Origin: a virus | Lineage: Duplodnaviria; Caudoviricetes | Direction: 5' to 3' (one strand) | Virus record (IMG/VR): IMGVR_UViG_3300021400_003144 | DNA length: 64,000 nucleotides | The notes under the pieces: generated by a model | Told to the model about the DNA's origin: nothing | Databases searched by the model: none | What the model saw: only the letters and a program-made list of their open reading frames with translations | Shown here: in pieces, positions 13,196 through 63,641 of the stretch | Layout: every line of letters starts with the position of its first letter | How positions within the stretch are numbered: position 1 is the stretch's first letter | Translations under genes and position numbers: made by a program

Positions 13196-13279
13196 GCTCC
13201 TATGGTGGAATTGGCAGACACGTTGGATTTAGGTTCCAATGCCTTAAATGGCGTGCAAGTTCGAGTCTTGTTAGGAGCA
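13196..13279 (+). tRNA. tRNA-Leu(UAG), CCA not encoded
   Basis: Acceptor GCTCCTA/TAGGAGC, D arm TGGTGGAATTGGCAGACA, anticodon stem TTGGA-TTTAGGT-TCCAA, long variable arm, GTTCGAG T loop. Confidence 0.95.
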
Positions 13280-56042: not shown

Positions 56043-57449
56043 TTGGAGGACATTGTTTTGAGTATAGACAAATTAAGACTTACACCTATTGATATTAATG
56101 ACTGTGTAAAAGATAAGTTAATCAAGTATGAAAATGGAGCATATTCAGACCCTTATGATGTAGAGTCTTTGATTAAAGATAAGAGTAGAGTTAAGAGTAA
56201 TGGAGAAGTATTTACACCAGCTCATATAGTTTCTGATATGCTTGATATGACAGATAAAGCTATCTTTGAGATTGAGGGTAATGATGATTGGAATTTCTAT
56301 GAGTTTGTAGATAGTTGTGCAGATGCTAATAAGCTTAGAAAGTATATCTACAAAACATATCTTGAGCCTTCTTGTGGTAATGGTAACTTCTTGGTTCAGG
56401 TACTTGAAAGAAAGATTGTTGCATCTATAAAGGTGTTTAGACTTACTAATGATAAGGAAGAGTTTATTCTTAATACATACAGGTGTTTTACAACTATATA
56501 CGGTGTTGATATTAAGGGTGACAATATTATAGAGAGTAAGAACAGAATGTATATAAGATATCTTAATACATTGAATAAGTATAACCTTGTATTAAGTGAT
56601 AAGCATTCTGAAGAAGTAAAGCAGCTTGCATATTTTATTATGGACAGAAATATTCAGCTTGGTGATACATTGAAATGGTCTTATGTACAGGATGGAAATG
56701 CACCAATGTTTGAAGCTGAGGTTCTTAGATCATATAAGGAAAAGCCTAAGGAAGAAAAGGGAAGTATTGATGATGCAAGCATGTCTGATGGTGTAACAGT
56801 CAGTACTAAAGTAAAAGATGGTTCAGATGAAAATGTGACTAAGCTTGTCAAGTGGCTTAGAAATCCAGATGGCGAGAAACCAAAGTACAATGATAAAGAC
56901 AAATATCCAATGCTTATAACAGAGTGGATTTTTAATGCTGATAGACTTAGCAGAAGAACCTTTGAGGGTACAGAACTTGCAAAGGAAGAGTCAGACCAGA
57001 TTATTTTCCATGACATTACAGATAGAGTACAAATCAGATATAACAACATATTATCTGATGTTAATACAGCTAGAATATCTGAGGGTGAGAGTGTTGATTT
57101 GAGTACTGAGATTGGAAAAGCTTCAGAAGAATATGTTGAGCCAGATAACATTGAGAGTGAGACATCTGATGATATAGAGGATGACTCAGATGATGAGAGT
57201 AATGGTTTAAATGAAAACATTAATACTAAGAGTGAAAATACAGGAGTTGAAGGACAAATGAATCCTCCAGCATATAATAGTGCTGAGGCTATTGCACAGG
57301 CAGCTTCTGAGGACTCAGGTAACTTATCAAAGAAAGTTAAAGCTAAGAATGAGGCTAAAGAAACAAAGGAAAGTGGTAAAAAGACTACTGCTAAGAATAT
57401 TAAGGGTGTAACTCAGATGCCTAAAGGTGGTCAAATGTCATTGTTATGA
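56043..57449 (+). CDS. N6-adenine methyltransferase-like protein (SAM-binding half) with disordered C-terminus
   Basis: RVKSNGEVFTP, LEPSCGNGNFL, IYGVDI, NIQLGDTL; no canonical NPPY after these motifs. Confidence 0.75.
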   Translation: MEDIVLSIDKLRLTPIDINDCVKDKLIKYENGAYSDPYDVESLIKDKSRVKSNGEVFTPAHIVSDMLDMTDKAIFEIEGNDDWNFYEFVDSCADANKLRKYIYKTYLEPSCGNGNFLVQVLERKIVASIKVFRLTNDKEEFILNTYRCFTTIYGVDIKGDNIIESKNRMYIRYLNTLNKYNLVLSDKHSEEVKQLAYFIMDRNIQLGDTLKWSYVQDGNAPMFEAEVLRSYKEKPKEEKGSIDDASMSDGVTVSTKVKDGSDENVTKLVKWLRNPDGEKPKYNDKDKYPMLITEWIFNADRLSRRTFEGTELAKEESDQIIFHDITDRVQIRYNNILSDVNTARISEGESVDLSTEIGKASEEYVEPDNIESETSDDIEDDSDDESNGLNENINTKSENTGVEGQMNPPAYNSAEAIAQAASEDSGNLSKKVKAKNEAKETKESGKKTTAKNIKGVTQMPKGGQMSLL

Positions 57450-58543
57450 GGACATATAAAGCTATGGAAGAAATGAGTAATACAGAAGAAAATGGTGTTA
57501 TACTTAGAAATATAGCTGGTAACATAGGTCAGATAGTTAAAGGAATTGGTATGCTTTTAAAACAAGGCATGCCAATTAAAATTAATAATGGTACATTTAT
57601 AGATGAAGATAAATATGAAGAAGATACCAGACAATATAAGTTAGTTGACTTTGCTAGAGATTGTTATGGCATAGAGTTTAGTAAGATAGATATTAACTTA
57701 GATAACTCACATCAGTTGATATTAGTAGGTGTACCTGGAGTTGGTAAAACAACCATAGCGTTGGCTTATGTTAGGGCTAAGACAGGATATGTAAAATCTA
57801 AGTATTATGAGTTAATAACATTTGGAGAAGATTGGGATAGGTCAGACTTTACAGGTGGTACAGTTAATGTAGATGGAGTTTGGCGTAGACAAAAAGGTAT
57901 ATTCACTAAGATGTGTGAAAGAGCTCTTGCAGATAGGAGTCATAACTATTATCTTATAATAGACGAGATCAATAGAGGTAATACAGCTGGAATTATGGCT
58001 GATGCTTTTACAGGTTTATCTCAGCGTGATGTAAGGTATAGAACTCAGCTTGGAGAATACATTACAGTGCCTAGTAATTTATACATTATAGGTACCATGA
58101 ATGCATTTGATAGTAGCATTAGTGACTTGGATATGGCTATGAAGAATAGATTTCCATTCATAGAACTTGACCCAGTATGGAATGACCCTGGATTTGCAAG
58201 TAATCTGACTAGGATTATAGGAGCTATAGAGTATGGTTGGGATAGTCCTTGGTTAAGAAGATTAATGAAGAGAATAGCAAATGATATAGCAGCTCTTAAT
58301 AATGCTATAATGGCTCAAGGAAGAGTTGGAAATGCAGCTTTGATAGGTGTAAGACCAATCTATAAGAAATTTAAGAGTCTTGAGCATTTTAGAGAGTCAT
58401 ATAATAATGAATTATTACATACAATTAAAGACTCTACAGAGTTTGTGCAGGATGTTCCTGAAATATCAGACTATATAAAGGATCTTGAGGGAGTATTGGA
58501 AGATATAGATAGAGTTCTAAGAAGAGATAGCACTAATGGTTGA
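57446..58543 (+). CDS. mcrB: McrB-like AAA+ GTPase
   Basis: GVPGVGKT, LIIDEINRGN, YIIGTMNAFD, AMKNRF. Confidence 0.85.
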   Translation: MRTYKAMEEMSNTEENGVILRNIAGNIGQIVKGIGMLLKQGMPIKINNGTFIDEDKYEEDTRQYKLVDFARDCYGIEFSKIDINLDNSHQLILVGVPGVGKTTIALAYVRAKTGYVKSKYYELITFGEDWDRSDFTGGTVNVDGVWRRQKGIFTKMCERALADRSHNYYLIIDEINRGNTAGIMADAFTGLSQRDVRYRTQLGEYITVPSNLYIIGTMNAFDSSISDLDMAMKNRFPFIELDPVWNDPGFASNLTRIIGAIEYGWDSPWLRRLMKRIANDIAALNNAIMAQGRVGNAALIGVRPIYKKFKSLEHFRESYNNELLHTIKDSTEFVQDVPEISDYIKDLEGVLEDIDRVLRRDSTNG

Positions 58544-59600
58544 TAAAGGTATTAAGTTACAGACAGTTCTTGAAATATTAAGATTTGATGATAAAGATTT
58601 GAAGATAAATGTTTCAGACTTAAACTTTGATGAAATAAATAATATCAATGATTTATTTGGTAGTATACTTGAAAAGGGTATGCAGGAGATAAAACAGTTT
58701 GGTTTTAAGAAAAGTTATGTCAATAGATATAGAGAATTGTCTAAAATAAAAGGTAAGATAGATTTTAATAAATCTATCAGTAAGGCAGCTGTTGCTCGTG
58801 GTAGACTAGTGTGCAATGTAGAGGAACTGAGTATAAATAATATATACAATCAGATACTTAAATTTGCAATTATGAGTCTATTTAAGGGTAGAATTAGTGA
58901 CAGAGAAGATAATGGGGCACTATCACGAAGTATACGGATTAGATTATTACAGTATGTAGATATATTGAAAAATATAAATAATATTAATGGGGTTGACACG
59001 AAACTTGTTGAGTATATAAAACAGTCTGCTCCATTTTATTATGCTAATGGGTTGCATACTGCATTATATATATCTGAGCTATATGGAACTTTAGATATAG
59101 ATGGTAGGTCTAGATTAAAGACTAGTAAGGATTGGAATAGATGCAGAAATATTTTTGAAAGACATATTCTGAATCTAATTCGAGACAGCATAAATGAATA
59201 TGAAAAAGAGTTAGGCAAATTCAAGGTATTACCTAGAGTTTATATGGACAGTAAAGGTAGAAAACTACCTGATATAATAATGTCTGATGGTAAAAGGGCA
59301 ATCACTATAGATGTTTATTGGTATGATAAAAAACATCATAGCACTGGAAAACTTGAAGATGGCTATGATAATTCACACTATGCTAATTATATATCTGATA
59401 CACTTCAAATAGCTAATGTAAATAATTTGATAGTTTATGCAGAAAAAAGAGAAGTCAGTGAGTATTCAGAATATACTAGTGACTTAAAGCAGAACTACAG
59501 ATTAAAAGCATATGTATTTGATATGTACTTAAATAAACCCGTAGAAGTTTTTAATAAAAGGTTTAAAACTGTGTTGAAAGATATGACACAAGTAAGATAA
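58536..59600 (+). CDS. mcrC: McrC-like protein
   Basis: Overlaps mcrB; IKGKIDF, ELSINNIYNQILK, IFE, LPDII...IDVYWY. Confidence 0.75.
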   Translation: MVDKGIKLQTVLEILRFDDKDLKINVSDLNFDEINNINDLFGSILEKGMQEIKQFGFKKSYVNRYRELSKIKGKIDFNKSISKAAVARGRLVCNVEELSINNIYNQILKFAIMSLFKGRISDREDNGALSRSIRIRLLQYVDILKNINNINGVDTKLVEYIKQSAPFYYANGLHTALYISELYGTLDIDGRSRLKTSKDWNRCRNIFERHILNLIRDSINEYEKELGKFKVLPRVYMDSKGRKLPDIIMSDGKRAITIDVYWYDKKHHSTGKLEDGYDNSHYANYISDTLQIANVNNLIVYAEKREVSEYSEYTSDLKQNYRLKAYVFDMYLNKPVEVFNKRFKTVLKDMTQVR

Positions 59601-59627: not shown

Positions 59628-62600
59628 ATGAAACTTAAGAAGATAGCATTAATAACTTTACTTATGACACTTGCAGGTGGTTGTAAATCATTTGCAAGTG
59701 ATACTTTTTTGCCAGGACCACAGGTAAACATACTATTACAAAGGTGCCTTCCATCTACTCCTGGTTATAGTAATTATATACCTGGTGATAGAGTCAGAAG
59801 GATGGAGAGAGTTAATATAGTAGACACAGATTTTGACCCAGAGCATTATGTGATATTTAGATATGACAGTAGTCAATACGGAGAGTTTTCTGTTGATGAA
59901 AGTCATGCTAATAGAGATACTTTAGCTGATGGGCAAAAACTTTCATATATTATATTAGTAAGTTCTACAAATTCAAATTCAACTAGTGAGAAGAACATCT
60001 GGGCATACTATGATGCAGATGGTGGTGGAGAATTGTATGGACAAACAACAGGAAGTATAAAGTTCTTTTATGGTTCTCAAGATGATTTTGGAGTTAAGGA
60101 GCCTACTAATCATGACAGTGATGAATATTGGAATGACTATTCCAAATATATGAATACAATGTCTTCATCTAAAAATACAATTTATTTGAATGCTGATTCA
60201 TCAAAAATGTTCAAAGGTCTAAACTTAGGATATGATGCTGATATAGATTGCGTGTATGCAGATAAGCTATTCAGGACATCATACAATCTTGATAATGGAT
60301 ACTACATTGATACTCAGTATGTAACTGACTATACAGAAATGTTTTTCGGGTGTGTATCTGGAGATACACCATTAGACATAGACTATAATGCTTTTAAATA
60401 TATAAGATGTACTTCTACAAAGAAAATGTTCTATTATGTTAAAGGAGTAAGTACTAATGTGGGTAGCAACTTTGACAATACAATAAACTCAAATTGTGAT
60501 ACAACTGATATGTTCTACACCAGTTCTTACTATAATGATATGCTTAGTTTCAGTGGATTATGGTATGCTCCAAATCATACTAATTATACTAATATGCTCT
60601 ATGAAAGAGCGGAAGATATTCGTAATTTAGACCTCAGATTTATAGCAGTTGATAATTATGAAAAATTATTAGGGCATGGGATGTTCTTAAATTTGAAAGA
60701 GTTTGCACCTCCTATGTTTAAGCTAATGTCTAGACAGCTGGTAGAGAATATAATCAGAGGTGTGGATACATATACTCCAGACTTATCAAATTATCCAGAG
60801 CAATACTGGGATACTAGACCAGCAGGCAGAGGAGATTATATAATGTGGACTGTACAGGGAGATGATACACATAGATTATATGATTGGAAAGAAGTATATG
60901 CAGTATATAAAGAGGCTTATGATAGTGATAAAGAAATAACTTTTGAAGCAGTAGAGATGATAGAACCTATAGTGAAGTTTAATTGTAGTTCTACTGATGA
61001 TATGGATAAATTAAACGGAAGTGAGCTAATTATAAATTTAAATTGTAAATACGGTAATTTTACAATAACAGGTACACTTAATAAAGATGGGAGTAAACTT
61101 AGATTAGATGCTTCTGAGAAAATACCAAAAAGCATGTATAGTATTTCAAATATCAGTGGGTTGGGTGATAACTATACTATAAATAACTTAAGTAATACAG
61201 CATTAGACTACTATAATTACTATAGTACTCCAGTATTAACAATTAAGAATCTACATAAGTATAATCCTAAATTATCAATAGATAAAGATAATACAAATGA
61301 TTCTTATGTAATTACATTTGGTAATTTAGCTAGTGGCATTAAAGTCATTGATAAAGATAACAATGAGACAGTACCAACTGGAATGAAATTAGAGATGTAT
61401 GAAGGTACAGGAGACATAGTAGGAGATGGAGTAACACATTCTAAGTATACTGAGAATCTTAAAAAAGTATCTGAGACTACACTTAATAGCACTACTGGTG
61501 AGTTGAAGTTCAGTGTGGATTGGAACACTAAGGATGCAGATGCTAGGTATTATTATCTAGTAATACCTTCAGATCAAATAGGAGACTATAGATTATCATT
61601 AGACCATGAAAACTCTTACTATTATGTAGATGGAGTAGGCTATATAGTACCTAATGCAGGTGATGATAAATATATTACCAATAATGTTGAGTTTGGAAAG
61701 CATTTGATAACTAGCAATCCAGATAAAAATGCATATAATTCTGTATGGTGCATAGATAAGGATGAAGAAACAGCTGAAAATATTGTGTTTAATATACATG
61801 GAAATGCTGAGCTTCAAGTAACAGTAGATAAGACATCTAATGATGCAAGTATAGTAACATCCTATAATGCAAATAATTCTGATGGAGTTAACTTAGATAC
61901 AGAAGGTGGAATCACATTATTTGCAAAGTCCATATATGATACTGGAGAAGCACAAGTAAAAATATCTACAGAAGTTCCAGCTGGTAAGTATGGCATATAT
62001 GATGCAGACAAGAATCTTATTAAAGAAGTTGAGACTGACGATAACAACATAATAAAGACAGTTATAAATGTTGTTAAGCAGTTAGGAGAAACAATTACTT
62101 ACTATATTAAACAGTTAGACATATTTGATGATACATTAAATGTTGATGATGAGTTTAAGGAGTTTGAAGTAGTAGCTTCTCCAAGTGAGTTGAATCCAAA
62201 CGAGTTCACAATGGTAGCAAAGGGATTGGATGAAATTACCTTTAATAACCCATTAAAGCAGGCTACACCATCAGAACTTGATAAAAAGGACATCGAAATT
62301 GAAGTTGATGATGTTAGAAAAGAAACTGTTGACCTTACAGATTATAAATCAGATGCAGCTGTGACATTCAATGTTCTAGAGTATGTAAATGATAACTATG
62401 AGGATGAATACTTTGATAGGTTACTAAGAACATCAGGCATTACAAGTAAGTATAAGTATACTTTTAATAATAAAAAGAACTTGTTTATAGACCTTCAGGA
62501 AAATGAAGATGACAACAGCTTGTATGATTTATCTATGTATACAGACAATAATACAAAGGAAATAGAATTTGATATACCTGAGAGTATACAGGAAGAACTT

Positions 62601-63350
62601 GTAGATGCAGGAATTACTGATGTAGCAATCAGTAAGATTGAAGTAAAGTTTAAGAGTAACTCTGGTATAAGTACTCCTTCAGAGATTGGTAAGAGTACAC
62701 CATCTGAAATTACTCATGACAATGATGATAAGAAGAGTACACCTTCTGAAATTCCTAGTAATAATGGAAAGGGAAATGGAAAAGGAAACGGAAGCAATAG
62801 TGGAAACACTGGAAATAATGATAACAATGGTGAAACAAGTGGTAATGAAAGTGGAGCTAATATCGGAAACAATAGTGAAACTGGTAATGTAGTTAATAAC
62901 ACTAATAAATCATCTAATAGCAGTAAAAAGAACAAAGATGATGAAGATAATAGGCCAGCTTATGATGGTGATTGGTTTACATTAGATGGAAAGCCTTTGA
63001 ATAAACCAGTATCTAAGGCTGGTGGTGCTAAGTTTAAGATATGGCAAACAAGTCTTTATGTTAAAGATGAAAAACGTATACTACCAGTACATGGCAGATA
63101 TGGAACTTATAGAACATACTTGTTTAACCATGAAGGTCAAATAGTTTATGGCTGGGCTAAGGACCCTAAGACTCATAAGTGGCATTACTTCAATGATGAG
63201 GGAGCTGAACTCTATGGATGGCAATTCATCAATGGAAAATGGTATTTCTTTAATGATGATATGAATGACATAAATCATGGAGATATGCTTAGCAACTGTA
63301 CTTATAAAGGATACAAGTTGGGTGAAGATGGAGCATTAATAGAGAATTAG
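59628..63350 (+). CDS. giant secreted surface protein (1240 aa) with shared C-terminal module
   Basis: Signal peptide; a few degenerate BspA-like repeats; STPSE/ATPSE repeats; cell-wall-binding repeats. Confidence 0.85.
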   Translation: MKLKKIALITLLMTLAGGCKSFASDTFLPGPQVNILLQRCLPSTPGYSNYIPGDRVRRMERVNIVDTDFDPEHYVIFRYDSSQYGEFSVDESHANRDTLADGQKLSYIILVSSTNSNSTSEKNIWAYYDADGGGELYGQTTGSIKFFYGSQDDFGVKEPTNHDSDEYWNDYSKYMNTMSSSKNTIYLNADSSKMFKGLNLGYDADIDCVYADKLFRTSYNLDNGYYIDTQYVTDYTEMFFGCVSGDTPLDIDYNAFKYIRCTSTKKMFYYVKGVSTNVGSNFDNTINSNCDTTDMFYTSSYYNDMLSFSGLWYAPNHTNYTNMLYERAEDIRNLDLRFIAVDNYEKLLGHGMFLNLKEFAPPMFKLMSRQLVENIIRGVDTYTPDLSNYPEQYWDTRPAGRGDYIMWTVQGDDTHRLYDWKEVYAVYKEAYDSDKEITFEAVEMIEPIVKFNCSSTDDMDKLNGSELIINLNCKYGNFTITGTLNKDGSKLRLDASEKIPKSMYSISNISGLGDNYTINNLSNTALDYYNYYSTPVLTIKNLHKYNPKLSIDKDNTNDSYVITFGNLASGIKVIDKDNNETVPTGMKLEMYEGTGDIVGDGVTHSKYTENLKKVSETTLNSTTGELKFSVDWNTKDADARYYYLVIPSDQIGDYRLSLDHENSYYYVDGVGYIVPNAGDDKYITNNVEFGKHLITSNPDKNAYNSVWCIDKDEETAENIVFNIHGNAELQVTVDKTSNDASIVTSYNANNSDGVNLDTEGGITLFAKSIYDTGEAQVKISTEVPAGKYGIYDADKNLIKEVETDDNNIIKTVINVVKQLGETITYYIKQLDIFDDTLNVDDEFKEFEVVASPSELNPNEFTMVAKGLDEITFNNPLKQATPSELDKKDIEIEVDDVRKETVDLTDYKSDAAVTFNVLEYVNDNYEDEYFDRLLRTSGITSKYKYTFNNKKNLFIDLQENEDDNSLYDLSMYTDNNTKEIEFDIPESIQEELVDAGITDVAISKIEVKFKSNSGISTPSEIGKSTPSEITHDNDDKKSTPSEIPSNNGKGNGKGNGSNSGNTGNNDNNGETSGNESGANIGNNSETGNVVNNTNKSSNSSKKNKDDEDNRPAYDGDWFTLDGKPLNKPVSKAGGAKFKIWQTSLYVKDEKRILPVHGRYGTYRTYLFNHEGQIVYGWAKDPKTHKWHYFNDEGAELYGWQFINGKWYFFNDDMNDINHGDMLSNCTYKGYKLGEDGALIEN

Positions 63351-63369: not shown

Positions 63370-63526
63370 GTAAAAAAAGAACCCTTTTATAGGGATTGAT
63401 TTGATAATGTATTATTCTTTCAGTTCACAAGGTCAGTAAGTGAACCCTTGCAATAGGGATTGAATGATTACAGCTTTTAAGTTATAATTTTCTTTATTCA
63501 AGAGAACCCTTCTAATAGGGATTGCA
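63370..63526 (+). CRISPR. degenerate CRISPR-like mini-array, 3 repeats, no cas genes
   Basis: GAACCCTT-(TT/GCA/CTA)-ATAGGGATTG cores starting at 63379, 63442, 63504; unique intervening sequences; CCCT/AGGG hairpin. Confidence 0.55.
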
Positions 63527-63612
63527 TACTATATTTAAAACAATATTGGTTTAAGGGTGACTTGTAAAAGGTACTCTTTATTTATATAAATTAAAATTAT
63601 TTTATAAATATA

Positions 63613-63641
63613 TTGAAATTTATATAAATTTGTGTTATAAT
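63613..63641 (+). promoter_or_regulatory. sigma-A-type promoter with extended -10
   Basis: TTGAAA-17 nt-TATAAT preceded by TG. Confidence 0.75.

Follow-up and report, generated by a model that had tools for sequence, protein, structure and literature searches.

The window analysed here comprises 64,000 nt of DNA assigned to a virus of the class Caudoviricetes (Duplodnaviria; IMG/VR record IMGVR_UViG_3300021400_003144) and corresponds to the reverse strand of a 282,865-bp sheep-rumen metagenome scaffold (ENA ERZ28612966 scaffold_29). Its GC content is 31%, and nearly all of its long open reading frames (ORFs) lie on the plus strand. A 314-nt intergenic gap near the end of the window separates a gene for a 1240-aa secreted protein from a gene for a 120-aa protein and contains a block of three short direct repeats (Table 1). 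In scaffold coordinates, which equal 250873 minus the window position, the block occupies 187346-187497. When 5.8 billion protein clusters were searched, the 1240-aa protein had no homologue of similar length and was found only as itself, on 2 contigs. Directly upstream of its gene (57446-59600) lie genes for a McrB-like AAA_5 ATPase and a McrC-like protein, and the neighbourhood as a whole is accessory or defence-like in character, with the McrBC-like pair, an IetA-like ATPase, a NERD protein, methyltransferases and a reverse transcriptase. Among 52 proteins, PADLOC matches were obtained to IetA, PD-Lambda-5_B, TRIP13-like proteins and type II methyltransferases, and Pfam matches to NERD and HipA-like domains. 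The window also carries a tRNA gene at 13196-13279 (Rfam, 53.6 bits), with no repeat of the family described below nearby.

Table 1. Features in and around the repeat block, in window coordinates; R1 is the covariance model of the repeat.
Feature	Coordinates	Strand	Description
Upstream gene, 1240-aa secreted protein	59628..63350	+	ORF; C-terminal choline-binding-type repeats, weak Choline_bind_3 match
Repeat 1	63376..63401	+	26 nt; 5-nt loop; 3' tail ATTGATT; R1 39.5 bits
Spacer 1	63402..63438	+	37 nt, 30% GC
Repeat 2	63439..63465	+	27 nt; 6-nt loop; 3' tail ATTGAAT; R1 37.6 bits
Spacer 2	63466..63500	+	35 nt, 20% GC
Repeat 3	63501..63527	+	27 nt; 3' tail ATTGCAT; R1 42.3 bits
Possible third guide	63528..63564	+	After last repeat, without closing repeat
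Weak hairpin followed by T-rich run	63553..63580	+	-7.6 kcal/mol, z -1.2; not called terminator-like
Sigma-70-type promoter of next gene, outside array	63613..63641	+	Near-consensus, 11/12, TG (extended -10)
Next gene, 120 aa	start 63665	+	ORF; complete in L002

The original prediction had described the block as a CRISPR-like mini-array with three degenerate repeats, and the three cores were recovered where it had placed them, with repeat starts 63 and 62 nt apart and with spacers that are unique within the window and its flanks. The 27-nt register of the repeats was taken from a longer array on another contig (L029, see below). In the form used here, the block consists of direct repeats at a regular period, of a length within the range of CRISPR repeats (~23-50 nt), and of unique spacers of similar length, as expected of a CRISPR array. 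This recurrence is far beyond chance: the core pattern with a 3-nt variable loop had 2 exact matches, against 0.06 expected, a number reached by none of 100 shuffles, and a looser stem-plus-flank pattern had exactly three matches in 64 kb, all of them in the block, against 0.01 expected and with none of 100 shuffles reaching three. The pairwise identity of the repeats, at 21-23 of 27 positions (78-85%), is low for a CRISPR array. None of the 13 alignment columns that are invariant across the repeat family (see below) is changed in any of the three copies.

Relatives of the block were sought by an exact-pattern scan of metagenome contigs, with a pattern built solely from the window repeats; apart from the loci described here, the matches were mostly single and attributable to chance. 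One relative is the 1.7-kb contig L029, on which five exact matches lie 60-63 nt apart and are accompanied by a sixth, variant copy. On this contig, a gene is followed in turn by a very strong terminator hairpin (-40 kcal/mol, z -7), an AT-rich leader of ~170 nt and an array of at least six repeats with unique spacers of 33-36 nt, the last repeats being increasingly odd. At the tip of the terminator (L029:1157-1217) is a small hairpin resembling the repeat in stem and loop (ATCC...GGAT, same loop), which gives the impression that a repeat has been built into the terminator. A second contig, L126, contains the end of an array, in which progressively degenerate repeats give way to a strong intrinsic terminator, located on the same strand, and then to a gene for an HsdR_N-domain protein; the arrays of L029 and L126 share an odd far-end repeat and no spacers. 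Two further contigs carry three-repeat blocks (L246:541-763 and L247:165-408), each flanked by a gene ending in KERK on one side and by an HsdR_N-domain gene on the other; the HsdR_N-domain products are orthologues of the L126 protein at 88% identity. Both blocks begin 35-55 nt past the preceding stop codon, in the same layout as the window block, in which repeat 1 begins 25 nt past the stop codon of the 1240-aa gene. From the tail of the second repeat onward, including the far spacer, the last repeat and the downstream DNA, L246 and L247 are the same; their first spacers and upstream sequences differ. Related arrays thus share far ends and differ at the near end. Collectively, the family displays longer arrays, a leader (L029), a degenerate far end (L126) and spacer turnover (L246 versus L247), that is, full CRISPR anatomy, so that the description 'CRISPR-like' is supported.

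The window repeats are tied to these arrays by sequence as well as by layout. Repeat 3 is identical to repeat 4 of the L029 array at 25 of 27 positions, and its tail, ATTGCAT, is the commonest in that array; the tail of repeat 2, ATTGAAT, is also that of L029 repeat 1 and L246 repeat 2. Several candidates were rejected as family members. L032, a bacterial contig that encodes spore photoproduct lyase and siderophore functions, has a single exact match, which was judged to be due to chance; it should be noted that this match had been included in the seed of the covariance model. L001 and the other single matches fall within coding DNA of unrelated composition and were likewise ascribed to chance. 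A search with the spurious minus-strand ORF that runs across the L029 array, intended to catch ORFs called inside other arrays, returned no candidates. More distant HsdR_N orthologues are encoded on contigs of 144 kb (L244), 216 kb (L248) and 540 kb (L250), none of which carries family repeats. Those on L250 (ENA ERZ27244937 k141_320834, 540,614 bp) and L248 (216,047 bp) have 67-75% identity to the protein encoded next to the arrays, and both contigs look like huge phages, nearly all of their called genes being on one strand and most genes on L250 having no Pfam match; the orthologue on L244 is found in an ordinary bacterial context.

Each window repeat contains the CCCT/AGGG hairpin noted originally, and the folding is weak: the 4-bp stems have energies of -5.0 to -5.3 kcal/mol (z -1.2 to -1.6), singly no better than shuffled sequences, and folding of the whole 250-nt gap revealed no structure that beats shuffles (z -1.27). 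Across 18 copies from five contigs, all four stem pairs are paired in 100% of cells. At the closing pair, 12 copies have U-A and 5 have C-G, and none of 500 shuffles reaches the observed covariation score. The stem is accordingly conserved through compensatory change at one pair only, which probably reflects one or two events in an alignment that was itself fitted to the model. The stems of L246 and L247 are CCCC/GGGG or CCCT/GGGG, and copies in which CCCT stands opposite GGGG can pair only as RNA, through G-U pairs, and break the palindrome at the DNA level. The leader of L029 and the terminator of L126 fix the direction of transcription, which is the plus strand in the window. Read in this direction, every family repeat ends with a tail of 7-8 nt that starts with ATTG and immediately precedes a spacer.

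A fourth copy of the repeat is present on the same scaffold. In the 2 kb upstream of the window (L003), ~1.8 kb before the window start, a lone repeat (L003:233-280) lies between genes for tRNA-Ala and tRNA-Asn, with a tRNA 5' half in antisense orientation directly behind it, in a repeat-then-guide arrangement; the antisense half resembles the adjacent tRNA-Asn without being identical to it. The covariance model R1 detects only four copies in the 76 kb of the element that were read, all of them on the plus strand. By analogy with this lone unit, the sequence that follows repeat 3 in the window may be a third, open-ended guide.

These observations bear on the possibility that the repeats are protein-binding sites, such as iterons, operators or a partition site, in which a dimeric DNA-binding protein would occupy three imperfect palindromes spaced about six helical turns apart, ahead of a strong promoter. 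An operator or iteron array was also what the original prediction would have fallen back on. The layout has features of this kind, since the 62-63-bp spacing approximates six turns, the individual units are imperfect inverted repeats and the block ends 85 nt before the near-consensus promoter of the next gene; direct imperfect palindromes at helical-turn spacing near a promoter are equally what plasmid and phage iterons and operator arrays look like. However, the family is independent of context, unlike such arrays: the unit occurs alone inside a tRNA operon, lies between genes on L246 and L247 with no promoter nearby and forms arrays of at least six units with periods of 60-63 nt, a leader and a terminator elsewhere. 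Furthermore, all copies are on the transcribed strand, and the RNA-type pairing described above is at odds with a DNA palindrome. Because the repeat unit is found both in the tRNA operon and in long arrays elsewhere, we regard a binding-site function as very improbable.

With respect to transcription, an AT-rich leader with a promoter is absent ahead of repeat 1, and promoter-like sites within the block occur at chance level only. One of these, a 10/12 site at 63460-63488, is composed of TTGAAT from the tail of repeat 2 and a TATAAT within spacer 2 and would start transcription shortly before repeat 3; such sites arise at chance frequency in AT-rich DNA. A terminator scan detected no terminator-like site between the stop codon of the 1240-aa gene and repeat 1, and the transcript of this gene is the probable carrier of the array. 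The weak hairpin beyond the last repeat, which the original prediction had also pointed out, is present; it did not pass the terminator scan, and it is possibly the leaky end of the transcription unit. A position in the 3' untranslated region, together with small hairpins, would also suit RNA 3'-end or stability elements of the upstream gene, either terminators or REP-like hairpins. Yet 4-bp stems of -5 kcal/mol without T-runs make poor terminators, none of them passed the scan, and regular spacing, unique spacers and long arrays elsewhere are not typical of such elements. We therefore consider this explanation extremely unlikely.

Neither Rfam nor any other reference collection searched contains the repeat family. 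In Rfam, only a tRNA passes the gathering threshold in the window and no CRISPR family does so, the best CRISPR match being CRISPR-DR47 (RF01360) on the plus strand at repeat 2, whose 17.6 bits (E 0.74) fall short of the gathering score of 39. The proposed likeness of the repeat end to the ATTGAAA(C/G) handle is thus real, though weak. Like CRISPR-DR47 and other repeats with AUUGAAA(G/C) tags, the window repeat has an unpaired 5' part, a 4-bp stem, a loop of 6-7 nt and an AUUGAA-type tail; in contrast to CRISPR-DR47, it is 27 rather than 37 nt long and its tail is variable after ATTG, so that it is not a member of that family. Three pattern scans and one protein scan of IMG/VR gave single chance matches only and no family array, a BLAST search of the L029 array against GenBank phages and PLSDB plasmids returned no match, and the window region itself had no match in GenBank phages. 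When 185,579 bacterial and archaeal species, each represented by one genome, were scanned with the exact pattern, 98 single, unclustered matches and no array were obtained, a negative result that is weak because arrays are often missing from metagenome-assembled genomes. As to Cas proteins, none of the Cas families was found among the 52 proteins encoded over ~76 kb (the window together with 2 kb upstream and 10 kb downstream), nor were cas genes present on the short contigs of the relatives; the term 'cas-less', by which the locus had been described, is accurate for this stretch, that is, locally only.

One conceivable role of a viral array without adjacent cas genes is directed at the host: the repeats would mimic a host CRISPR repeat and either enlist host Cas proteins against rival phages or, in the manner of Racr RNAs, act as decoys that soak up host Cas6 or effector subunits. 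Each is an established activity of mini-arrays and single repeat units carried by viruses (PMC11656645; PMC7162821). The mini-arrays of portogloboviruses SPV1 and SPV2 have repeats identical to those of host arrays and spacers that match related viruses (Medvedeva et al. 2019, PMC6858448; PMC11656645), and Racr units mimic the host repeat and act as decoys (reviewed in PMC11656645). The window block resembles the former in that a viral genome without neighbouring cas genes carries repeats separated by one or two spacers, and the latter in that repeat-like hairpin units are found on a mobile element away from cas genes, including a lone unit on the same element. The lack of any cas gene within 76 kb fits such a role, and L029, L126, L246 and L247 are too short for phage to be told from host DNA. 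On the other hand, unlike the SPV1 and SPV2 repeats, the window repeat has no matching host array that could be found, and its spacers no target; the 98 unclustered matches among 185,579 species genomes argue, albeit weakly given the frequent absence of arrays from assembled genomes, in the same direction and lend no support to the originally proposed borrowing or inhibition of host Cas proteins. In contrast to Racr units, the window units carry unique spacer-length sequences, and the family forms growing arrays with spacer turnover, unlike pure decoys. A host-directed mini-array or decoy is, on balance, unlikely.

Phages and this genome itself had been put forward as places to look for targets of the spacers; nothing above chance was found in GenBank phages, the 76 kb of the element, all fetched loci and 399 scored Clostridia genomes. 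Spacer 2 has chance-level matches only, and the candidate third guide has no target in the same collections (GenBank phages, fetched loci). The best match of any spacer, 23 of 24 nt within the glmS coding sequence of a Clostridia genome, was rejected, as it is near chance and mRNA-sense, an orientation unsuited to a guide that targets RNA. Stop codons close every one of the three frames of the reverse complement of spacer 1, which makes an mRNA target within an ordinary ORF unlikely for this spacer. No protospacer was thus found for any of the spacers in these collections.

That neither targets nor a leader were found could also mean that the block is a decayed relic, either a remnant of an older array or a stray copy, recognisable as such but without working guides. 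The window repeats, only 78-85% identical and with 3' tails that differ at 2-3 positions, would agree with decay, and the lack of homologues of the upstream gene may indicate that the locus is a recent patchwork. However, all three copies retain a perfect stem and every position that is invariant in the family, the differences are confined to regions that are variable elsewhere in the family as well (the loop, the tail and the 5' flank), and two of the three window tails are the commonest ones in other arrays. A relic is accordingly quite unlikely.

The reading that we consider the probable one is that the block is a small leaderless CRISPR array with three repeats, two complete spacers and, perhaps, an open-ended third guide, which would form a Cas6-processed tail of the upstream mRNA. 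With similar confidence, the repeat family is likely to be specific to a lineage of low-GC rumen or gut mobile elements. Membership of the family, the array anatomy of the relatives, the conserved hairpin, the orientation and the position behind a stop codon with no intervening terminator are observed; transcription and processing are proposed. Under this reading, the array would be transcribed by read-through as the 3' tail of the mRNA of the 1240-aa gene, and a Cas6-type endonuclease would cut at the 3' base of each 4-bp hairpin, leaving a repeat-derived 5' tag of 7-8 nt (ATTG plus 3-4 variable bases) on the spacer that follows. The guides would then be loaded into an effector encoded elsewhere. 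Two guides with a 5' tag would be produced, and possibly a third, open-ended one as in the lone unit of the tRNA operon, their 3' ends being trimmed as in type III systems, in which 3' trimming is part of Csm/Cmr crRNA maturation. Against this interpretation stand the points raised above, namely, the absence of a cas gene in ~76 kb, the failure to find a protospacer, the closed frames opposite spacer 1, the weak hairpins, the 78-85% identity of the repeats, the missing leader and covariation at a single pair.

A bolder version of the leaderless-array reading, which we put forward as doubtful, is that the element scatters its guide-RNA genes deliberately, placing them in the 3' tails of ordinary mRNAs, here that of a giant surface-protein gene, and in tRNA operons. 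The timing and amount of each guide would then follow those of its carrier transcript, and the Cas6 cut at the first repeat would set the 3' end of the carrier mRNA and perhaps protect it through the bound enzyme. If this were true, CRISPR processing would double as mRNA 3'-end formation.

Among the closest known systems, the compact arrays of huge phages, which lack adaptation genes and in which the median repeat number per array is six (Al-Shayeb et al. 2020, PMC7162821), are similar to the window block in that a very short array is carried by a large phage-like element with no Cas1 or Cas2 nearby and with guides presumed to act against hosts or rival phages (PMC7162821). The window block differs from these arrays in being leaderless, in lying 25 nt past a stop codon and in having unusually dissimilar repeats. 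Compared with these arrays and with virus-borne mini-arrays and single repeat units, the block is distinguished by its leaderless position in the 3' tail of a gene, by the heterogeneity of its repeats and by the lack of any matching host repeat found; a full-text literature search turned up no account of arrays placed in this way.

The block adds to the known theme of phage-borne CRISPR guides and is, on its own, a modest addition to it. The gene-tail layout is not confined to the window, as it recurs on at least two other contigs (L246 and L247). If the leaderless-array reading is true, the crRNA genes of a giant phage-like element need not share one leader-driven array beside cas genes; rather, blocks of two or three guides would ride in the untranslated tails of unrelated genes, far from cas. 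This bears on how phage CRISPR repertoires are expressed and on how they evolve without adaptation genes. It also has a practical side, in that blocks of this kind would escape array finders that require strongly conserved repeats, a leader or cas genes close by.
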